DNA of 64,000 nucleotides from the NCBI GenBank assembly GCA_965372795.1, contig CBDVDR010000006.1:97076-161075 (forward strand), written 5' to 3'. The notes beneath the pieces were generated by a model. The model searched no databases. It was not told the origin of the DNA and saw only the letters and a program-made list of their open reading frames with translations. A program made the translations under genes and the position numbers. The stretch is from an uncultured bacterium. GTDB lineage: Bacteria; Zixibacteria; MSB-5A5; GN15; FEB-12. The first letter of the stretch is position 1. Every line of letters begins with the position of its first letter. Below are positions 14,638 through 25,036 of the stretch, in pieces.

Positions 14638-14665
14638 TTGACAATTTTTGCTCATTTTGTATAAT
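14638..14665 (+). promoter_or_regulatory. consensus sigma70 promoter of the DUF1573 pair
   Basis: TTGACA-N16-TATAAT, 49 nt upstream of the ATG at 14715. Confidence 0.7.
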
Positions 14666-14714: not shown

Positions 14715-15428
14715 ATGAAAACAAAAAAAAATACAATAATTACATTACTGTTAATTGCTCTTCCGGCAGTATTATTGGCAGCCTCTAAACTTGAAGTAAA
14801 AGAAAGTAAGTTCAATTTTGGCTATATTCCGCAAAATTGTAATATTACTCATAATTTCTGGTTTATTTCAGCAGGTGAGGACACTTTAAAAATCAATAAG
14901 ATAAAAACCGGCTGCTCCTGTGCTGTGATGCCCCTTGAAAAAGACTGGATTGCCCCTGGTGACAGCATGCAAATTGGAATTCATTGGAAAATAAAACGTG
15001 AAGCTGGTGAAGCGGCAAAAAATCCGGCTATTTATACAAATGCTAAGGCAGATCCTTATCGAATTGGTGTAGCAGGATCCGTTATGAAAAACCCGATGAG
15101 CGATATTGATGCTGCCTCGATAAGTCCTTATATCATAGAATTGGCTAAAGTTGGAAATAAATCCATTGATAGCCTTTCATTTGAGATTACGAATAAATTA
15201 GAATATGAAGTTTCAGTCAATATTATTGAATCGAATATAGAGCAATGTATTTTAACCCTTCCGGAACTTTTGGGACCATTTGAAGTTTTTACAGCTATGG
15301 CTGTTGTTAAACCAGAATTTCTCGATCAGGAGTTTACCGGTTCTGTTACAATTGAATTATCGGGACCTAAAGATACAAGAATAACGATTCCGATTAGAAG
15401 AAAAATATACAATTCAAGTTCTCAATAG
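14715..15428 (+). CDS. exported DUF1573-like (Ig-like) protein, Cys form (G-C-S-C)
   Basis: Signal peptide; FNFGYIP...F.F...GEDTLKINKIKTGCSC...IAPGDS. Confidence 0.8.
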   Translation: MKTKKNTIITLLLIALPAVLLAASKLEVKESKFNFGYIPQNCNITHNFWFISAGEDTLKINKIKTGCSCAVMPLEKDWIAPGDSMQIGIHWKIKREAGEAAKNPAIYTNAKADPYRIGVAGSVMKNPMSDIDAASISPYIIELAKVGNKSIDSLSFEITNKLEYEVSVNIIESNIEQCILTLPELLGPFEVFTAMAVVKPEFLDQEFTGSVTIELSGPKDTRITIPIRRKIYNSSSQ

Positions 15429-15490
15429 AATTTGACGAAAAAAGAGAAGAAAACGAAAAACATTATTTATATAGAAAGCATATAATAAGA

Positions 15491-16216
15491 ATGAAACGCT
15501 TAATTATTGTAACTATTTTAGTTGTCTTTGTAGCCTTGGCTGCCTTCAGTGCTCCGAGATTATCAATTCAGGAAAGTAGCTTTAATTTCGGTTATGTACC
15601 ACAGAATTCAAAAATATCTCATGATTTTTGGCTGATGTCTACCGGAGATGATACTTTAAAAATTCTCAAAATAATACCTGGCTGAGGATGCACAAAAGCT
15701 CCTCTTGAGAAGGAGATACTTGCTGTCGGTGACAGCACAATATTAGAAATCATATTCTCAACCAAGAAATATAAAAACAGAATCACTAAACGCCCGAGAA
15801 TCCAGACCAACGAAGGCACACCCGATAAAACGGTACAAATTATTGCCCACGTTGTTCAACGTCCTGACTCTACCTATCCTGTTATAATTCAACCTTACAA
15901 ACTCGACCTGTCCCAATTCACAGAAAAAGTAAGAGACAAAATAAACTTTAAAATCACAAACGTTTCTGACCAGCCTTTGGATTTATCTTTAATATCATTC
16001 TCTGCTAAAATGTTTGAAGTCAAGCTGCCAAGTTCTGTTGACCCCGGTAAAACAGCTGAAGGTACTCTCAAACTTAAAAAGAGTGCCCTTGATAAATCTT
16101 TCGAAAAATCTTTTACGTTTGAAATTAACGATGAAAAAAATAGCCGCTTTACTATACCTGTAAAAAGAACTGTTCGCATTACTGCAAACAAAGGGAGCGG
16201 CAAGGCTGGAAAATAA
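15491..16216 (+). CDS. candidate selenoprotein: exported DUF1573-like protein (241 aa) with UGA at codon 65 (G-U-G-C)
   Basis: ORFs 15491..15685 and 15977..16216 share a frame with no other stop between them. Readthrough gives KIIPG*GCTKAPLEKEILAVGDS, versus paralog KIKTGCSCAVMPLEKDWIAPGDS. Confidence 0.8.
15699..15715 (+). promoter_or_regulatory. putative bacterial SECIS hairpin
   Basis: CTCCT(C)T-TGAG-AAGGAG stem-loop; loop begins 20 nt after the TGA and has G in its second position. Confidence 0.55.
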
Positions 16217-16236
16217 TTCTGGTTTAATTCAGTTAT

Positions 16237-16268
16237 AAAAAAAGTCGCCGATTGGCGACTTTTTTTTT
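16237..16268. terminator. bidirectional intrinsic terminator
   Basis: A7-GTCGCC-GATT-GGCGAC-T9. Confidence 0.9.
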
Positions 16269-16279
16269 GAAATTTACTT

Positions 16280-17707
16280 TTACTCAATGTCCATTCGTTG
16301 TCCCTCGGCAAGATTCTCTTCCCATATTTTACTAAATGGTTCTCCGAAGACATTGGAATGAACTAAACGGAAATCAAAGTTCCCGCTCCAATCCTCGAAT
16401 ACAAACAGTTTTCCTTCAGCAATGGATCGATAGTACCAGACAACATACGGATTACCAATCCGAGGAGAGCTGATTTCATCAATTTCTTCATAAGGTCCGT
16501 AAGTAAGATAAATTCTACCTTGGTCAGATTGCCAACCATTGTTCTTTTGGGGGTTGTTTGAGAATAATTGATTTACATAATAAAATCTTTCAATTAACTC
16601 AAGACGTGATTCGTTCTCGGGCGTATTTTTTTCAGAATCGTGCTCTGCCCAATATTGGTTCAGATAATTATTTTTCCCTTCATCAGTCAACCGATTCAAG
16701 GTAGCCATATGCTCAGGATTCAAAACATATTTCACTAAATCAATTTTTTGCTTCAAGGAGAATCTATCATAAGGGTCTCCCCCGGCTGCTAATGGCTTGG
16801 CTATCTGATCAGGGATCGGTTCAATAATTGCAAATGGGATAATGGTAGTATCAACCTGTTTGCTTTGTTTATCTAAAGCAATCATTTGAAAAGCATAAAT
16901 ATTCACCGGCCACCCTTTGATATCAAACTCTTCCACTATCACTGCTGAAGAACCGATTTTTTCAATTTGACGTTCGCCAAGAAACATAAAGAAACTTGAA
17001 TCCTGATTCAAGGCCACATACGTCAGCTGGAATTTTGATGGTTTCTCAGAATTGTAATCCAGATTATACAATTCAGTATAAATGGTTATAGAAGTATCAT
17101 TAGTTCCATAAATTGATGGCGGGTTGGGGTAAATACGGTATCCGTTTTTCACCATCTTTGAATTCGTATCCAGACTTTCTCCGACATAGTCAATATTATA
17201 GGCCAGATAAATATCACTCAAAGTAAGTTTTGCTTTATAAATCGGATCGACAATAATCTCGCCGATAAAAAACTCTCCCCGGTTTTTATTGACTACATCA
17301 ATCACTGTAATTCTGGCAAGAAAAATTCCTGGTTTGGCAAGGAGTTGCAAGCGACTGAATATTCTAACATTTTTTTTAGCAGCTTCTTCTTTTGTGGCAG
17401 CGACAATTGCAAAATAAGTATATGATGAATCAATCGTTTGTCCTAATGTGTCTATTAAATCAACTTGTGCATAAACTCTGGCACTAAGTTTACCTTCGAT
17501 TTTTTCATCATTGAAAAATTCGAATTCATTTCTTTTTAATGCAATCGGAAATTCGAGTAATACAACAGAGTCCATTGACGGATTTGGAAATATTTTTACT
17601 GCGGTATAAACATTTATAATTTTTTCACCCGCGAAAATATTACCTGCAATTAGCAATATTATAAAAAAACAAAAAACACTTTTCGAAATAACCTTAATAC
17701 TGTTCAC
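16280..17707 (-). CDS. GWxTD-domain exported protein
   Basis: Signal peptide; YW...NE...RFYY.N..F...GWQSDQGRIYLTYGP...W.Y. Confidence 0.85.
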   Translation of the reverse strand: MNSIKVISKSVFCFFIILLIAGNIFAGEKIINVYTAVKIFPNPSMDSVVLLEFPIALKRNEFEFFNDEKIEGKLSARVYAQVDLIDTLGQTIDSSYTYFAIVAATKEEAAKKNVRIFSRLQLLAKPGIFLARITVIDVVNKNRGEFFIGEIIVDPIYKAKLTLSDIYLAYNIDYVGESLDTNSKMVKNGYRIYPNPPSIYGTNDTSITIYTELYNLDYNSEKPSKFQLTYVALNQDSSFFMFLGERQIEKIGSSAVIVEEFDIKGWPVNIYAFQMIALDKQSKQVDTTIIPFAIIEPIPDQIAKPLAAGGDPYDRFSLKQKIDLVKYVLNPEHMATLNRLTDEGKNNYLNQYWAEHDSEKNTPENESRLELIERFYYVNQLFSNNPQKNNGWQSDQGRIYLTYGPYEEIDEISSPRIGNPYVVWYYRSIAEGKLFVFEDWSGNFDFRLVHSNVFGEPFSKIWEENLAEGQRMDIE

Positions 17708-17721
17708 ATATCCCTCGTCTT

Positions 17722-19071
17722 TTAAAAGTCAGGCCTCATATTAAACCCATCATAGGGATATGCCAGCCGATATTCACCATCCTCATTTTCATCAATAAAT
17801 ACAAATTTACGATATCTTCCATCTCGATAATAATGCCATTCCTGATAAGGTCTTCGATTGGGAGACAGCGGAAAATCTTCAAGTTGATCAGGTTCTCCAT
17901 ACATAATGTATGTTCTTCCACGATCAGTTTTCCACCCATCCCTCCTCAAATAAGAATACCTTGAGGTAGCATGTCTCACCCGGCGATAGAATTCAGTTTT
18001 ATATTCATTATCTGATGTTCCGGGTGTTGGATCCCTTAATTCCCAGAATTCCTTAAATGCCTGGATTCTTAATTTTAAATCTTCAATTTTCTTCATCTCG
18101 TCAATTTCGCCATCATTTGCAATAAAGGATAACTGCTTAAGGACAACATCATAGTCATGTTTGATAAACATTTCAGGGGTCATTTGAATATTAAAAGCTT
18201 TATGTTTGGAATCAAATTTCTTCTTTCGGTTACTTCGAAGTTCGATTTCAAGTTCATAATCCCCGGGACGGAAATCATCAATTACAATATCTCTTAACTG
18301 CATTGATCGCGGGTATTCAATCGGTACTGTTACACTATCACGATAGATCATTTTACCATATTTATGATCACGGAGAATTGTAATCATTACTGCTTCTTTT
18401 ACATCTTTTTTCCCCGGATAAATTTCGACATAAAACAGTAGGTGGTTTTCTCTATTTAAACCGCCATAGATATGGGTAACTGATGGAACAACAGCAATAT
18501 TCCCTTTATTAAATGGGCTTGTTTCCGATTGTATTTCTCCGAATGCCTGGGAGAATTCAATTTCAGAAAACTTTGGAGATTTCTTATCATATTTTTTTAA
18601 ATTAACTTTCAAATCTTTGGTATTAACTTTTCGGCTATGTTTATCTCTCAATGTTACAATAATTTTATATTTTCCAGGATCCAAATCAAAATTCATTTGT
18701 AAAGTTCTGAAATCAGCCAAAGATTTTGTTTTGTCGATTGAGTTTACAATAATTGTCTTGGGAATTTTATCTAAAACTACTTCGTTTTTCTTTTTATCTA
18801 AGATAGTCAGCTCAACTTCATAATTCGCTATATACTGATTGTTCTCTTCTTTAAAAGATAAAAAATAATTGTATATCTGATAATAAATTTCAAGGCGAAC
18901 TTTGTCGGGCTGGTCTGATTTAAATATGGAATAATCAATAGGAATACTTTTTAATCGGATATTGCCTACATCCCCAAATTGAAATAACTCTCTCGATTCA
19001 GTTGAAAAAACTGAAATAAGAATTATTAAAATTATCGCCGTAAATGTATTATTTATTTTCTTCATATTCAT
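17722..19071 (-). CDS. GWxTD-domain exported protein
   Basis: FWELRDPTPGTSDNEYKTEFYRRV...GWKTDRGRTYIMYGEPD. Confidence 0.9.
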   Translation of the reverse strand: MNMKKINNTFTAIILIILISVFSTESRELFQFGDVGNIRLKSIPIDYSIFKSDQPDKVRLEIYYQIYNYFLSFKEENNQYIANYEVELTILDKKKNEVVLDKIPKTIIVNSIDKTKSLADFRTLQMNFDLDPGKYKIIVTLRDKHSRKVNTKDLKVNLKKYDKKSPKFSEIEFSQAFGEIQSETSPFNKGNIAVVPSVTHIYGGLNRENHLLFYVEIYPGKKDVKEAVMITILRDHKYGKMIYRDSVTVPIEYPRSMQLRDIVIDDFRPGDYELEIELRSNRKKKFDSKHKAFNIQMTPEMFIKHDYDVVLKQLSFIANDGEIDEMKKIEDLKLRIQAFKEFWELRDPTPGTSDNEYKTEFYRRVRHATSRYSYLRRDGWKTDRGRTYIMYGEPDQLEDFPLSPNRRPYQEWHYYRDGRYRKFVFIDENEDGEYRLAYPYDGFNMRPDF

Positions 19072-19161
19072 CTTTATAACAAATTTAGTTAAAGGTCAGT
19101 TCCAAATTGTTACAAGTCGTCAATATAACTATTTTATAAACGTAAGAAAGTAAGAAAACAT

Positions 19162-20412
19162 CTATTCGTAATGAAGAGCTGCGATAGGATCAAGCAACGA
19201 TGCTTTGTATGCAGGATATATTCCTGAAATTAATCCAACAGAGACCGAGACAGTAAATCCAACAATAATCCAAAAAATAGATATCGTAACCGGAAAACCA
19301 AGCAATGAATTGATTGACATGCCGGCAATAAGTCCAAAAATTACGCCTATTACTCCACCGGCTGCAGATAATGTCACAGCTTCGGTTAAAAATTGAATAA
19401 TTATGTTAGATCGCTTAGCTCCAATTGCCTTCCTAATACCTATTTCCCGCGTTCTTTCAGTGACCGAGACCAGCATGATATTCATAACTCCAATGCCCCC
19501 AACCAGAAGCCCGACAGAAGTTATCAGAATCATTGCCATGTAGATATAGTTAGTAATATTAGATACGTAATCCTTGAAATTATCCTGAGTAGATATTGCA
19601 AAGTTATTACCTTTGTTAAAAGGTACTTTACGATAAACTCGCAGAGCACTGATAAGTTCTTCTTTGGCAAGTTCTATATTTTCAAATAAATCAGCTTTAG
19701 TGATAAGAAATAATTCTTCTTCCCAGGGATGAATCTTTTCAAAAGTAGATAATGGCATTATAATTTGGTTGTTCTCTCCATCATTATCAAAGTTTGATTC
19801 TTTCTTTTCGAAAACACCAATAACCTCAAATTTATTTCCGTTTGCCCTAATCTCTTTTCCAATAGGGTTCTCCCCTTCAAACAATCCTTCAACAACGTCA
19901 TCACCTATCACACAGACCATCGCTCGAAACTGTAGATCAGTTGAATTTAAAAATCGCCCTTTAGCCAGAGTTGAGTTATTGACTTTCATATAATCGGGCC
20001 AGGTCCCCATCAGAGCAGGCCGGTTGGCTTTTCGGTTTTTATATTTAACTACATTACCACCACGGTTAAAATAATAATTTTGGGGAGAGACCCCATCTAT
20101 GTGAGGACAGTTCTCAACTATTACCTTAGCTTCACCGATTGTAATCGGAGGGCGGTTTCGATCCTCTTCAGAAAGCTGACCTCTGTCAACATCAAAAGGA
20201 TGTTTTGTAATCATTATGGTATTTGAGCCGATACTGTCAATCTCTTCATTAAACGCACCATCGAGCCCATTAACAATTGACGCCAGTCCGATTACGGAAC
20301 TAACTCCGATCATAACACCCAGAATAGTTAATCCCGAACGCATCTTACTTGCTCTTAATGACGAGAGAGCCATCAAAATTGCTTCTTTTATTTCAATAGG
20401 AGTTAATACCAT
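19162..20412 (-). CDS. MacB/YknZ-type ABC permease (FtsX domain)
   Basis: RSGLTILGVMIGVSSV; GGIGVMNIMLVSVTERTREIGIRKAIGA. Confidence 0.92.
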   Translation of the reverse strand: MVLTPIEIKEAILMALSSLRASKMRSGLTILGVMIGVSSVIGLASIVNGLDGAFNEEIDSIGSNTIMITKHPFDVDRGQLSEEDRNRPPITIGEAKVIVENCPHIDGVSPQNYYFNRGGNVVKYKNRKANRPALMGTWPDYMKVNNSTLAKGRFLNSTDLQFRAMVCVIGDDVVEGLFEGENPIGKEIRANGNKFEVIGVFEKKESNFDNDGENNQIIMPLSTFEKIHPWEEELFLITKADLFENIELAKEELISALRVYRKVPFNKGNNFAISTQDNFKDYVSNITNYIYMAMILITSVGLLVGGIGVMNIMLVSVTERTREIGIRKAIGAKRSNIIIQFLTEAVTLSAAGGVIGVIFGLIAGMSINSLLGFPVTISIFWIIVGFTVSVSVGLISGIYPAYKASLLDPIAALHYE

Positions 20413-20415
20413 TTT

Positions 20416-21639
20416 TTACTCATAACTCAAAGCTTTAATAGGGTCCAACCGGGCAGCTTTCATAGCCGGATATATTCCAAAAACTACGCCAATTCCGATA
20501 GATATAACAAGGCCGGCAGTAATAGCAAACACCGAAGGTTGAATTTGCATATCAATCATATTAACCAGTGATCTAGCAATCAAATAGCCGAAAACAATGC
20601 CGGCAACACCTCCTGTAAATGTAGTCATAAGAGCTTCAATCAAAAATTGCCCGAGAATATGTGACTGTTTTGCACCAATCGCCTTTCGGATGCCAATCTC
20701 CCGTGTCCTTTCGGTAACCGAAACCATCATAATATTCATAACGACAATCCCGCCTACAACAAGTGAAATCGAAGAAATCCCAACCAATCCAAGACGGAAT
20801 ATTTTGGTAATGGAATTTAACTGTTCCAGAATTGCATCAGCAGTAATTAGTGAAAAGTCATCCGGTTTATTATATGGGACATGACGGTTCGATCTTAAAA
20901 CCATCCGTACCTGATCCATTGTTTCATCTAATACTTCAACCGATCTTGCTTTGACTAATATTGAGGAAAACCGGCCTGGTTGACCAAACTGCTTGATATG
21001 AGCGGTAAGAGGAATCACACAAAAGCTATCACGATTCTGACCAAACATAGAACCTTGTTTATTCGCAACCCCGATTACAGTGTATTTTTGCCCATCTAAT
21101 TTTATTGTTTTACCAATCGGGTCTATGCCTTCAAAGAAAGTTTCCCGTAATAATTCTCCAATAAATACTACATGACGCTTCTCAAAATCATCTCCGGGAG
21201 CATGAAATCTCCCTTGTTCCACTTCAAAATCAACAATATCAATAAAATTGGATGTCGATCCGATTACGAAAACATTTTTTAATGATTGTGAACCATATTT
21301 TATCTGGGCATTATTAAAACTGCGAGGACAGATTTTCTCACAAAGGTTGCAGGATTCATCGATTTCATCAACCAGATCAATGTCAATCGGCTTACGTTTC
21401 ATCATTTCAAGATATTCTTCTTCAGAGGTTACAACCCCGTCAAAGGCTGCAATTATAAATGTTGACGGACCTAACTTATCAAGTTGCGCCTCGACGCCGT
21501 CCATCATTCCCTCAAGGGCTGATATAATAGTCATAACCGAGGTTACACCGATGATTACACCCAACAATGTTAAAGAGGTGCGAAGTCGATTTGCTAATAA
21601 AGCAAGTAAGGCAATTTTTGAAAGTGCGCCTGTTATCAT
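20416..21639 (-). CDS. MacB/YknZ-type ABC permease (FtsX domain)
   Basis: Same motifs as the neighbouring permease. Start moved to ATG 21639, directly after the ATPase stop. Confidence 0.9.
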   Translation of the reverse strand: MITGALSKIALLALLANRLRTSLTLLGVIIGVTSVMTIISALEGMMDGVEAQLDKLGPSTFIIAAFDGVVTSEEEYLEMMKRKPIDIDLVDEIDESCNLCEKICPRSFNNAQIKYGSQSLKNVFVIGSTSNFIDIVDFEVEQGRFHAPGDDFEKRHVVFIGELLRETFFEGIDPIGKTIKLDGQKYTVIGVANKQGSMFGQNRDSFCVIPLTAHIKQFGQPGRFSSILVKARSVEVLDETMDQVRMVLRSNRHVPYNKPDDFSLITADAILEQLNSITKIFRLGLVGISSISLVVGGIVVMNIMMVSVTERTREIGIRKAIGAKQSHILGQFLIEALMTTFTGGVAGIVFGYLIARSLVNMIDMQIQPSVFAITAGLVISIGIGVVFGIYPAMKAARLDPIKALSYE

Positions 21640-21640
21640 T

Positions 21641-22348
21641 TTATTGAACGCCGTTTCTAATGTCCTTAGATACGATCGTATCACTATCAATTTTACCATC
21701 AAGAATTGAAAGAACCCGGTCGGCTTGATTTGCAATAGACTGTTCATGTGTCACAACTATAATAGTGTTACCCTGGTCGTGAAGGTCATTAAACAGTTTC
21801 ATGATTTCAACCGAAGTTTTACTGTCCAGGTTTCCGGTTGGTTCATCAGCTAATATTAACGATGGATTATTAACTAAGGCTCTTGCAATCGCAACTCTTT
21901 GTCTTTGACCTCCGGAAAGTTCACTTGGTTTGTGAGTAATTCGATCAGAAAGTTCAACCTTTTCTAAAGCTAATTTTGCGAGATGATCACGTTCATCAGT
22001 CTGAGTGCCATTATATATTAAAGGCAGCTCGACATTATGGAGGGCTGTTGCCCTTGGCAAGAGATTAAATGTCTGAAAGACAAAACCAATTTCCCTATTT
22101 CGAATATTAGCCAGTTCATCATCATTCATAGAGCTGACACTTTTATCATTCAGGAAATATTCCCCTTTGGAAGGGGTGTCAAGGCAGCCGATAAGGTTCA
22201 TCAAAGTTGATTTACCTGAACCGGATGGTCCCATAATTGCAACATACTCACCTTTTTCAATTTTGATTGTGACACCACTGAGAGCATGAACATTTTCAGT
22301 TCCCATAGTGTAGGTTTTCCAGATATCTTTTGTTTCTATAAGAGTCAT
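21641..22348 (-). CDS. ABC transporter ATP-binding protein (MacB/LolD/YknY-type)
   Basis: [35 protein letters not shown]. Start moved to ATG 22348. Confidence 0.95.
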
Positions 22349-22349
22349 G

Positions 22350-23654
22350 TTATTTCTCAGATTTCTTTTTTTCAATTTCTACTAGTTCACCATCTTTTAT
22401 TGAACGTAATACCCGATATGGACCGGATACAACTGAATCTCCTTCAGCAATACCGTTCAATATTTCAATATTCTTTTTATCTGCAATTCCAGTTTTAATT
22501 TCAACAAATTGAGCCAAACCGTCTTTTATAACAAAAACACCTTTCAAATCCAGAGCTTTTTCATCAGAATCCTGTTTACTTTCAACTGATTCATTTTCCG
22601 CGGCATGGACATCAGTCGCCGTCAATGGAGAATCATTTGAAGTTTCGCCACTTCTCGCCAGTAACAAAGAGTCCATATCATAATTACGAAACACAACCGA
22701 GCTATATGGAATAGAAAGAGCATTGTCGCTTTTATTTGTTGTAACTTCAACCGTTGCAGACATTCCCGGTCGAATTTTTACATTTGGATCGTTAAATACT
22801 ACTTTCACCAAAAAGTTAGTTGATTGATTCTGTGTTCCACCACCTAAGATAGCAGTATTTCCAATTTCCACAACTTCTCCCGAAAATACTGTATCAGGGA
22901 AGGCATCTACTTCTATTTCAACTTCCTGTTTTAATTCAATTTTGTTTATTTCGGTTTCATCAATTTCAACTTCAACTTCAAAGACCGAAAGATCGGAAAT
23001 TGTCATTAAGGTTCTGCCTTGAGTAAAAGCAGTTTGAGCAGCTGCAATTTCTCCAACTTCACAATCTAAAAATGTAATTATTCCATTCATTGGCGGGACG
23101 ATTACAGCTTTACTAAGATTATCAAGCTGTTTTGCATATCTTGCCTCGGATTGAGACTTCTGAGCCTGAGTAGCTTCATAATTAGCCTTACTGTTCAAAT
23201 ATGTGTATTTAGCATTATTGAAAACAACTTCAGGAATTTGTTCTTTTTCAAACAGCTTTTTCTGGATTTCAAAGTCTTCTTCTGCTTTTTGCAGTGAAGC
23301 TTTAAAGCCGGTCAAACGTGCTTTGACTTCACTTAAAGCATACCTTGCCTGGTCTACATCCGATCTCAACTGAACGGTATCCAGCACAACCAAAAGGTCA
23401 CCTTTATTGACATAGTCACCTTCGCTAACATATAGACTGATAATTTCGCCAGTTATTTCTGATGTAATATCAACTTTAGTTTGAGGTTGAATTCTGCCGG
23501 AGGCTGAAACCGTTTCAATAAGTTTCCGACTATCGGCTGCTTCAGCATTTACTTTTGTCGCTTTATCGGTATTGGTAGTAAAGTTCAATACGATAATAGC
23601 CACGATCAGAATTCCGATGCCTCCGAATGTCAATATTTTTTTCTTCTTATTCAT
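22350..23654 (-). CDS. efflux periplasmic adaptor (MacA/YknX-type)
   Basis: N-terminal anchor; [19 protein letters not shown], coiled coil, [11 protein letters not shown]. Confidence 0.92.
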
Positions 23655-23713
23655 TATACAACCTTATTATTCCCTTCATTTCGATTAGCTTTAGGGATTG
23701 TATTATCTTTCAT

Positions 23714-25036
23714 TTAGTTATAAATCTTACCCATTGATTTTTCAATTTTTGCAACCGCAAGGTTTAGATCAAACTCTGCCTTAATCAATGAGACTTGAGC
23801 TTCTTTCAAAGAGACCTGGGCATTCAGCAGATCCAAAATTGTTGCTGCTCCAAGATCGTATTTTTCCTGGGTAATACGCAAATCCTCAACAGATGCATCA
23901 ACATTTTCCTGTGAAACAGTTTTCTGTTCTTGAAGTCTTTCAATATCGAGAAAGGCTGTTTTGATATCTTTAACCAGCCAGTTTTTTGAATCTGAATAGT
24001 TTGCTCTGGCATTGTTCAGCTTTATCTTGGCTGAACTAATATTTCTTTCACGGCTAAAACCATCAAAAATATTCCAGGAAATCTGAAATCCATATGATCT
24101 AGAATTTGAGCTTGAAGTTATCAAAGTTGGGTCACCATAACTTTGAGGTCCGATTCCTTCTGAATGTCGGTAAGAAGCATTGAGACTTAGCTTTGGTAAA
24201 TATTCAGCTTTTCTTGATTTTAAACCATACTTTGAAGCATCAACCTCTTTTTTAGCAGACAACAAGAACGGTGTATTTTGAAAAGCATAGCTCAGTGCTT
24301 CATCCATCGTACCATTATAAATCGATTCAATATATTTTGGAGAAAAACTTACATCACTTTTTGGATCCACACCAATAGTATAGGCAAGCGCTGCTTTGGA
24401 ATTTGTTACGGCATTTTCTCCTGACAATAAAGTAAGCCGGTCACGACCAAATTGCACTTTTTGTTTTAAGACATCAGATTTTGCAGCCGATCCAAGTTCA
24501 AATCTCGACTCAATTAATTTTAACTGTTCTTCACTTCTCTTAACAGCTTCCTTTTGAACTTCAACATTTTCAACCGAGGCCAAATACGCATAATAAGAAG
24601 TTTTAACAGCATAAATTAAATCCAGTTCAGAATTTAGTACATTTAGCCTGGCTTTTTCCTGATCTACTTTTGATCCGATGTAATTAAACCATGACGGGAT
24701 ATTAATTCCCCACATATTTGCTGAAATACTTAAAAATTTATCAGATCTGTCTTCCTGATCGCCAAAAGAAATATCACCAATTTCCAAATCAGTTGTTTTC
24801 GATTTTGTGTATGAATATGAAGTATTAATTCCCGGTAAAAAAGCGCCCAACGCCGCTCTTTTATTATCATTTGAACGAGTTAATTCACCTCGGACAGCAA
24901 CAATGGAAGCTCGGTTTTTGAGGGCTAAATCAATACAATCATCAAGCGTTAATTGTTCAGCCTGGACAACATTCGAAAATAACAAACCTATAATCAGGGT
25001 TAAAAGTGTAATAGTTTTAATCGTGACAGATCTCAT
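23714..25036 (-). CDS. TolC-family outer-membrane efflux protein
   Basis: LTLDDCIDLALKN; RFELGSAAKSDVL; KYDLGAATILDLLNAQ. Confidence 0.92.
   Translation of the reverse strand: MRSVTIKTITLLTLIIGLLFSNVVQAEQLTLDDCIDLALKNRASIVAVRGELTRSNDNKRAALGAFLPGINTSYSYTKSKTTDLEIGDISFGDQEDRSDKFLSISANMWGINIPSWFNYIGSKVDQEKARLNVLNSELDLIYAVKTSYYAYLASVENVEVQKEAVKRSEEQLKLIESRFELGSAAKSDVLKQKVQFGRDRLTLLSGENAVTNSKAALAYTIGVDPKSDVSFSPKYIESIYNGTMDEALSYAFQNTPFLLSAKKEVDASKYGLKSRKAEYLPKLSLNASYRHSEGIGPQSYGDPTLITSSSNSRSYGFQISWNIFDGFSRERNISSAKIKLNNARANYSDSKNWLVKDIKTAFLDIERLQEQKTVSQENVDASVEDLRITQEKYDLGAATILDLLNAQVSLKEAQVSLIKAEFDLNLAVAKIEKSMGKIYN

Follow-up and report, generated by a model that had tools for sequence, protein, structure and literature searches.

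A UGA codon in a Zixibacteria DUF1573 gene is very probably read as selenocysteine and is followed by a nearly invariant hairpin at unusual distance

In a stretch of 64,000 nucleotides (nt) from an uncultured bacterium of the phylum Zixibacteria (assembly GCA_965372795.1, contig CBDVDR010000006.1, positions 97,076 to 161,075; the whole stretch is called the window below), a gene for a protein with a DUF1573 domain is interrupted by a single TGA. Comparison with its homologs leads us to believe that this TGA, at 15683-15685, is very probably a genuine selenocysteine (Sec) codon and that the gene belongs to a known selenoprotein family. The features from which the argument starts are these:

15491..16216, plus strand: probable selenoprotein gene, 241 codons and TAA, single in-frame TGA
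15683-15685, plus strand: UGA as probable Sec codon, residue 65 (paralog and ortholog alignment, Sec machinery in the genome)
15689..15691, plus strand: TGC codon for Cys67, partner of Sec65 in a U-G-C motif (nearly invariant in a 61-protein alignment)
14715..15428, plus strand: upstream Cys paralog of 237 amino acids with DUF1573 and a second immunoglobulin (Ig) domain, reading TG-C-S-C-AV (Pfam, BLASTP)

The 726-nt frame at 15491-16216 has no interruption other than TGA 15683-15685 and terminates at TAA 16214-16216. Under translation table 11 it is split into a 64-residue open reading frame (ORF), 15491..15685, and a 79-residue ORF, 15977..16216, that begins at an internal TTG at 15977. Translated with TGA as U, it yields 241 residues with one U (residue 65, in the context IIPG-U-G-C-TKAPLEK) and one terminal stop. 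BLASTP aligns this read-through protein with the upstream paralog over 228 residues (34% identity, E 2e-47), and residue 65 falls on the paralog's Cys67, whose TGC starts at 14913 (14715 + 66x3). Hence the UGA is aligned to Cys in homologs, the classical Sec/Cys pairing. The original prediction, made from the letters of the window alone, had joined the two ORFs into one frame with a lone TGA and had described the product as collinear with the 237-residue paralog, the TGA standing at Cys67. Retranslation and BLASTP agree with it on both points.

When 40 relatives and the host genome were searched in six frames, all 41 genomes proved to have homologs, and most of the best hits contained exactly one TGA. 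From 30 fetched loci we obtained 66 segments with DUF1573-type frames, of which 64 domain hits had more than 150 profile positions aligned. TGA occupies one identical alignment column in 31 sequences, representing 30 of the 30 loci, where the reading is PG-U-GCT[K/Q]-APL; none of these 31 Sec forms contains a second TGA or any other stop. At the same column, 12 close Cys forms read PG-C-GCT and the more distant upstream paralogs TG-C-x-C. Over all loci the Sec form was met 67 times, in 58 distinct sequences. When 150 genomes of the phylum, all in one class, were sampled, best hits of the TGA form were spread across four families of the order, and two further families of the class each gave one case, confirmed at sequence level. 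Judged from the alignment, recurrence of the TGA column in 31 of 31 orthologs and 30 of 30 loci is far beyond chance.

Downstream of the TGA the entropies at codon positions 1, 2 and 3 are 0.96, 0.67 and 1.61 bits (150 columns), much like the 0.71, 0.53 and 1.49 bits found upstream of it; the downstream part is therefore coding and under purifying selection. Mean identity to the window protein among orthologs is 60% downstream and 68% upstream. The original prediction had looked to orthologs that would keep the TGA column and a conserved frame behind it, and such orthologs exist; it had also named a TGA confined to one strain, with relaxed selection downstream, as the sign of a recent pseudogene, and this is contradicted by the 58 distinct sequences and by the selection just described. 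Some homologs have one TAG or TAA inside the match (for example G004:C252:22907-23605, G021:C1:183679-184374 and G020:C40:6566-7273). These may be pseudogenes, or alignments that overrun the true stop.

The host genome (3.35 Mb in 69 contigs, 98.65% complete) has the machinery whose presence the original prediction had left to be looked up. Its tRNA-Sec scores 68.9 bits (cut-off 47) and is called tRNA-SeC, anticodon tca, by ARAGORN; selA (513.6 bits) and selB (323.6 bits) are both over their curated cut-offs and lie adjacent on the contig that also bears the tRNA gene. The selD gene (389.3 bits, likewise over its curated cut-off) has one in-frame TGA of its own. Counting from the U of UGA as +1, a numbering used throughout, the UGA of selD has behind it a hairpin of 8 bp whose GGU triloop is at +24-26. 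TGA terminates 213 of the 1422 open frames of at least 300 codons in this genome, so its genetic code is standard.

G000:C4:204174-205094, plus strand: selD, itself a selenoprotein gene, SCAG-U-ASK (profile match and in-frame TGA)
Contigs C19(-), C31(-), C1(-), C27(-) and C16(+): five further candidate Sec genes (coding-potential scan)

The idea that the machinery is kept for the DUF1573 gene alone was considered and rejected: a coding-potential scan that took in all long read-through TGAs (5737 candidates) gave further plausible Sec genes. By eye, from their motifs, these are two AhpD/CMD-like genes (C-V-H-U and C-H-Y-U), a thioredoxin-like one (W-U-T-W-C), a HesB-like one (G-U-S-G) and a gene for a W-U-P-L-C protein. 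Most of them have a hairpin with a G-containing loop, GGUC or GUU among them, at about +24-30, and the loops of the thioredoxin-like candidate and of selD, which lie in that range, are GGUC and GGU.

The predicted protein consists of a signal peptide and two Ig domains.

15491..15553, plus strand: predicted signal peptide, residues 1-21, MKRLIIVTILVVFVALAAFSA (sequence; residues 2-17 helical in the model; similar ortholog N-termini)
15551..15862, plus strand: N-terminal DUF1573/HYDIN-VesB-type Ig domain, residues 21-124 (PF07610, PF22544, model)
15866..16177, plus strand: C-terminal MSP/PapD-like Ig domain, residues 126-229 (model, structure search)

The Pfam DUF1573 model (PF07610, cut-off 26.1) gives the Sec protein 79.6 bits over residues 25-121 and the upstream paralog 67.7 bits, and the HYDIN/VesB-type Ig family PF22544 matches both proteins, the Sec protein with 67.1 bits. 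The N-terminus (MKR, a hydrophobic stretch of 17 residues, then AFS/AP) is signal-peptide-like by sequence. AlphaFold2 was run on a 61-sequence alignment with U entered as C, the 4 of 64 sequences with TGA at other columns being omitted. The model (mean pLDDT 94.8, pTM 0.87) has a helix at residues 2-17, beta-sandwiches at 21-124 and 126-229, and a short basic tail of low confidence. In it, U65-G-C67 would lie in the first domain, on the loop after the third strand (residues 56-62). Nearly invariant in the 61 proteins are F31, F33, G34, H44, W47, G64, C/U65, C67, G80, D81 and S82. Thus a DUF1573-like domain, an Ig fold and a signal peptide, all three proposed originally from the sequence, are seen again in the Pfam scores, in the model and structure searches and, for the signal peptide, in a prediction from the N-terminal sequence and its modelled helix.

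Foldseek and a search independent of it concur in placing both domains in the PapD-like/ASH/MSP Ig superfamily of seven-stranded sandwiches (Z 12-14 for the first, at residues 21-124, and Z 10-11.7 for the second, at 126-229). The first domain matches PDB 2qsv (2qsv_A), an uncharacterised two-domain protein of Porphyromonas gingivalis that resembles the Sec protein in size and build, with Z 14.3 and a root-mean-square deviation of 2.4 over 104 residues, and it matches the C-terminal Ig domains of the proteases VesB (12.6) and VesC and HYDIN-type domains with Z of about 12-13.6. The second domain matches MSP domains (1row_B, Z 11.7) and pilus chaperones (Z about 10). Sequence identity in the matches to 2qsv, HYDIN, VesB and ASH proteins is only 8-18%, and by sequence there were no matches among PDB chains at E up to 1. 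We know of no redox protein or selenoprotein among 2qsv and the HYDIN/VesB/ASH Ig proteins. The protein is unlike thioredoxin-fold oxidoreductases in consisting of two Ig beta-sandwiches and in having UxC rather than CxxC or UxxC; as modelled, any redox function that it may have is analogous and not homologous to that of those enzymes.

Several suggestions can be made about what such a protein might do. The 241-residue precursor would be exported by its signal peptide, and outside the cytoplasm the mature protein, of about 220 residues, would consist of two PapD-like Ig domains. There, Sec65 and Cys67 could form a reversible selenenylsulfide that exchanges with the thiols or disulfides of an envelope substrate; alternatively, the selenolate/thiolate pair could bind a thiophilic metal such as copper. 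A redox-active selenenylsulfide is the reading we would favour, with metal binding as its close rival. Certain observations weigh against this account. The structure search returned no enzymatic analogue of the fold among its matches. The CxC motif is lost in some distant paralogs, so that the scaffold exists without it. In the window and in the flanks of related loci, no thioredoxin-like, DsbD-like or copper genes adjoin the DUF1573 pair. Loss of CxC in a few distant paralogs also means that the U/C-x-C pair is dispensable for the fold, which points to a functional site.

A hint comes from another copy of the gene. Beyond the Sec gene the host genome has three DUF1573 copies, namely the upstream paralog (34% identity), one on contig C28 that reads PG-C-GCT (60%) and one on contig C9 (40%).

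L093:6967-7683 (locus L093 = G000:C9:65000-79000), minus strand: C9 Cys paralog, between an S26 signal peptidase gene and cytochrome c maturation (ccm) genes

The C9 paralog, which comes after rseP and dxr, has the signal peptidase gene on one side and ccmA-ccmB-ccmC-ccmE-ccmF on the other. In the C9-type loci of relatives (Pfam was run on 54 of 89 ORFs) it adjoins the S26 signal peptidase in 16 of 19 and ccmA/ccmB in 11 of 19. In the host genome a profile search did not find CcmH (PF03918), and CcmG/dsbE had no match over its cut-off; thioredoxin-fold proteins do exist there. CcmF appears at the C9 locus as two ORFs. The adjacency would fit a role of the family's CxC in handling thiols in the periplasm, and since the C9 paralog is only 40% identical and persists where ccm is absent, we count it only as a hint.

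That U-G-C is instead a metal site, for instance that of a Cu(I) chaperone, and no centre of thiol-disulfide redox chemistry, is a real possibility, to which we give somewhat less than an even chance. It would account for the conservation of His44 in 30 of the 31 Sec forms, and several selenoproteins in the tables of two reviews (PMC9312934, PMC13188914) handle metals. Yet several Cys paralogs that retain CxC have another residue in place of His44, no copper-handling family was found near the three DUF1573 loci examined in the host genome, and the paralog beside the cytochrome c maturation genes points equally to thiol reduction.

The other side of the question is how Sec would be inserted. 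Two hairpins were compared, position by position, between the 31 Sec forms and the 12 close Cys forms.

15696..15721 (+14..+39), plus strand: helix 1, a hairpin of variable sequence, proposed structured spacer (pairing in Sec versus Cys forms)
15722..15736 (+40..+54), plus strand: helix 2, GCUGUC-GGU-GACAGC, proposed SelB-binding hairpin of the selenocysteine insertion sequence (SECIS) type (invariance, folding)
15728-15730, plus strand: GGU loop of helix 2

Save for loop base +48 (26 T, 5 C), the 15 nt of helix 2 do not vary among the 31 Sec forms. The invariance extends to third-codon positions +42, +45, +51 and +54, while other third positions have 1-1.9 bits. In the 12 Cys forms the same codons (A-V/P-G-D-S) vary freely, and helix 2 cells are paired in 51% of cases against 100% in the Sec forms. 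All 58 distinct Sec sequences retain the structure, with variants only at the third loop base (46 GGT, 8 GGC, 2 GGA) and in two changes of G-C to G-U. Folded alone, helix 2 has -9.1 kcal/mol and z -3.3. Helix 1 is of a different kind: its cells are paired in 78% of cases in the Sec forms against 48% in the Cys forms, controls slid along the alignment reach 39-58%, four of its pairs are changed on both sides (27 cells), and 0 of 500 shuffles reach the observed double-change cell count, percentage paired or covariation score.

We propose that SelB with Sec-tRNA(Sec) would be recruited to UGA 15683-15685 by an RNA element within the coding sequence, that Sec would be inserted, and that translation would continue to TAA 16214-16216. 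The recruiting element would be the invariant GGU-triloop hairpin at +40..+54, and helix 1, by folding, would bring it to a workable distance from the ribosome. It is the invariance of helix 2, together with the GGU loop found also after the UGA of selD, from which we infer that SelB binds helix 2 and that helix 1 serves as a structured spacer, reducing the effective distance.

Bacterial SECIS elements, in the part of a 2026 review that gives their consensus (PMC13188914), have an apical loop of 3-9 nt with G in the first two loop positions, an upper stem of 4-16 bp, a distance of 16-37 nt from UGA to loop, and a minimum free energy of at most -7.5 kcal/mol. Like an element of the bSECISearch type, helix 2 is a hairpin inside the coding region, 3' of the UGA, and it fits in loop (GGU, 3 nt), stem (6-7 bp) and energy (-9.1). 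It departs from the consensus in the second, variable hairpin that stands between it and the UGA; the loops of other Sec candidates of the genome are at about +24-30.

A number of results count against this assignment of the two helices. Helix 2 lies beyond the consensus spacing, with 42 nt (+4..+45) between UGA and loop where the model has 16-37. As for helix 1, 370 of 500 shuffles attain the number of its doubly changed pairs, which does not exceed the shuffled level; RNAalifold finds helix 2 and offers a short helix of invariant bases in place of helix 1, and the minimum free energy fold of the window copy likewise favours that short helix. In the window copy helix 1 is weak (8 of 11 pairs, -5.4 kcal/mol, z -0.63) and falls short of the SECIS energy limit of -7.5 kcal/mol. 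It is without G in the first two loop positions in 11 of the 31 orthologs and in 19 of the 58 distinct sequences.

These same data bear on an alternative in which Sec is inserted but helix 1 is the SelB-binding SECIS, while helix 2 slows the ribosome, stacks on helix 1 or binds a regulator. The spacing of helix 1 is canonical, with its loop about 21 nt after the UGA; it pairs better in Sec than in Cys forms and has compensatory changes, and its loop begins with G in 20 of the 31 orthologs. Nevertheless, its energy and z in the host genome copy are poor, and the absolute constraint on sequence falls on helix 2, whose loop is the one that recurs in selD. We consider this arrangement improbable. 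If helix 2 is the SelB site, as we prefer, this subfamily is new in having a putative SECIS hairpin 42 nt from its UGA, beyond the published window.

Elsewhere in the host genome no further copies of helix 2, exact or near, were found behind an open in-frame TGA. A looser scan for GG[T/C] loops gave 27 matches there, among which only selD and the DUF1573 gene look real. An Rfam scan of 15400-16300 found nothing at the SECIS, and over the terminator only sub-threshold matches to small RNAs.

There are ways to read the TGA without selenium. Insertion of one of the standard amino acids (Trp, Cys or Gly) at the UGA, by an altered code or by near-cognate suppression, would be in keeping with the fact that comparative data by themselves show read-through and not the inserted residue. 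It is nonetheless very improbable: TGA ends 213 of 1422 long frames under a standard code, the aligned paralog residue is the Cys expected of a Sec/Cys pair, tRNA-Sec, SelA, SelB and SelD are all present, and the conserved hairpin has the G-G-U loop that is typical of SelB sites and common to selD. As for a nonsense mutation or sequencing error that leaves a pseudogene or a 64-residue N-terminal product only, for which it can be said that the table 11 frame ends at codon 65, it has practically no chance, because one TGA column shared by 31 orthologs of 30 genomes and by 58 distinct sequences, together with an intact and selected downstream frame, excludes nonsense mutation, sequencing error and strain-specific pseudogene alike, and a hairpin conserved specifically in Sec forms and a complete Sec machinery stand against it as well.

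Selenoproteins with a DUF1573 domain have been described before, so most of the novelty claimed in the original prediction is lost: the family has been catalogued since 2007 as OS_HP2/DUF1573 with UxC or UGC. The 2007 listing is that of Zhang and Gladyshev in Nucleic Acids Research. OS_HP2 (Olavius symbiont's hypothetical protein 2) is named there among new selenoprotein families (PMC1976440), and the 2008 GOS ocean survey, where it treats the family, equates it with pfam07610, with UxC as its motif, and counts 2 sequences with Sec against 354 Cys homologs (PMC2398784). Tables in reviews of 2022 (PMC9312934) and 2026 (PMC13188914) list a PF07610 selenoprotein with UGC. The likeness of our gene to the family consists of the PF07610 domain, Sec at the first Cys of CxC (UGC) and abundant Cys homologs, and it has both features by which the literature defines OS_HP2, PF07610 and U-x-C (U65-G66-C67); its likeness to the members listed in the reviews is one of domain and motif description. 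What speaks against simple membership is the NCBIfam model NF041425, "OS_HP2 family (seleno)protein", with a cut-off of 100 bits, to which the Sec protein, with U as C, scores 78.5 bits, and which has no match over the cut-off in 41 related genomes. Ours is a 241-residue signal-peptide protein with two Ig domains, conserved across a Zixibacteria order. We therefore place the gene in the OS_HP2 family as the literature defines it, outside the curated NCBIfam subfamily.

A second DUF1573 type with U-G-C, of about 400 residues and membrane-anchored, is present in 8 relatives and comes nearer to NF041425 (78-96 bits, up to 95.8).

Loci L088-L091 (G008, G012, G038, G030): DUF1573 Sec type of about 400 residues, with basic N-terminus, one membrane helix, KGS-U-GCT-AAVL and further Ig-like domains

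After the UGA it has a two-hairpin element of its own, whose G-rich loop lies at about +44-48. The host genome gave no match to this type at E 1e-15 or better. Full-length database homologs of the 241-residue protein are named merely "DUF1573 domain-containing protein" or "hypothetical protein", and in the full texts consulted we found no description of the 241-residue Zixibacteria subfamily or of any Zixibacteria selenoprotein. This Zixibacteria-wide subfamily below the NCBIfam cut-off is thus probably a new, unannotated branch of a catalogued family. The expectation that annotation would miss the gene was probably right, given 78.5 bits against a cut-off of 100. Since the protein is under the model cut-off and the SECIS beyond consensus spacing, motif-based finders at default limits would probably skip it.

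A Cys paralog of the upstream type adjoins the Sec gene in related loci, 18 of which were aligned. In a quick maximum-likelihood tree of 63 rows the Sec label requires 14 changes, of which well-supported branches make at least 7 unavoidable. In several cases a Sec copy and a Cys copy that stand in tandem within one genome are sisters, with SH-aLRT values of 95-99. Either duplication has been repeated, with exchange of Sec and Cys, or gene conversion homogenises the tandem copies while the Sec/Cys difference persists. Both scenarios fit a standing pair of one Sec and one Cys copy, so we read the Cys paralogs, adjoining or elsewhere in the genome, as likely selenium-independent versions that back up the Sec form. 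Pairs of Sec and Cys isoforms exist elsewhere, in selenium-dependent and selenium-independent hydrogenases and formate dehydrogenases. The likeness is that one genome holds a Sec gene and a close Cys copy, here often in tandem; the difference is that DUF1573 pairs arise or swap repeatedly within one small family. Recurrent tandem pairs of this sort are new here.

The surroundings of the gene in the window are as follows:

14638..14665, plus strand: promoter-like site TTGACA-16 nt-TATAAT, 12/12 matches, 50 nt before the paralog start codon (consensus match only)
16237..16268, plus strand: intrinsic-terminator-like hairpin with A-run and T-run flanks (folding)
16280..17707, minus strand: GWxTD-domain gene, convergent, conserved neighbour (Pfam)
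16280-25036, minus strand: cluster convergent to the DUF1573 pair, with two GWxTD genes, two MacB/FtsX permeases and an ABC ATPase
16280-25036, minus strand: further members of the same cluster, whose transporter set lies behind the GWxTD genes: an adaptor of the HlyD type and an outer-membrane factor

The scan gave eight promoter-like sites where 6.5 are expected, and 14638-14665 is the sole perfect one. Folding of 16217-16280 gives a 13-bp hairpin followed by a T-run at 16237-16268 (-20.2 kcal/mol, z -5.4, 0 of 200 shuffles as good), in accordance with the strong terminator proposed originally at the end of the gene. A consensus terminator scan did not call this hairpin, presumably because its A-run and T-run pair with each other; with both flanks, the terminator is possibly bidirectional. 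A perfect sigma-70-type site before the two genes and a terminator after them mean that the paralog and the Sec gene may form one transcript, in which case the promoter at 14638-14665 possibly drives both. In related loci Pfam was run on the 45 long ones of 150 flank ORFs, and 22 of 29 loci have a GWxTD gene beside the DUF1573 cluster, with a score over the Pfam cut-off in 20. On the opposite side the neighbour is variable: 6 loci have an FAD-linked oxidase there, 5 an ABC ATPase and 2 a peptidase M20. By gene order in these loci, synteny with GWxTD conserved across the order is also new here.

All of this could be combined into a broader proposal. DUF1573 Sec genes might have a distinct class of SECIS, a GGU hairpin beyond 16-37 nt that needs a structured spacer, with something alike in the relatives of about 400 residues; their products might provide an extracytoplasmic selenol/thiol centre for the maturation of envelope proteins, as the paralog next to the signal peptidase and ccm genes might suggest, CcmH not having been found in that genome; and tandem Cys copies might serve as back-ups. 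As a whole, with every part required to hold, we find this proposal doubtful.

What the finding adds to Zixibacteria, which to our knowledge is a phylum known solely from metagenomes, is a well-supported, lineage-wide selenoprotein. It also gives a concrete cause for such genes staying split in annotation, namely a protein that scores below the cut-off combined with SECIS spacing off the consensus. That the 15-mer is invariant in Sec forms while Cys forms drift freely at synonymous sites amounts to a clean natural experiment on recognition by SelB. DUF1573 is a large family of unknown function. Since Sec marks its CxC as a functional site, the chemistry of the family becomes directly testable.

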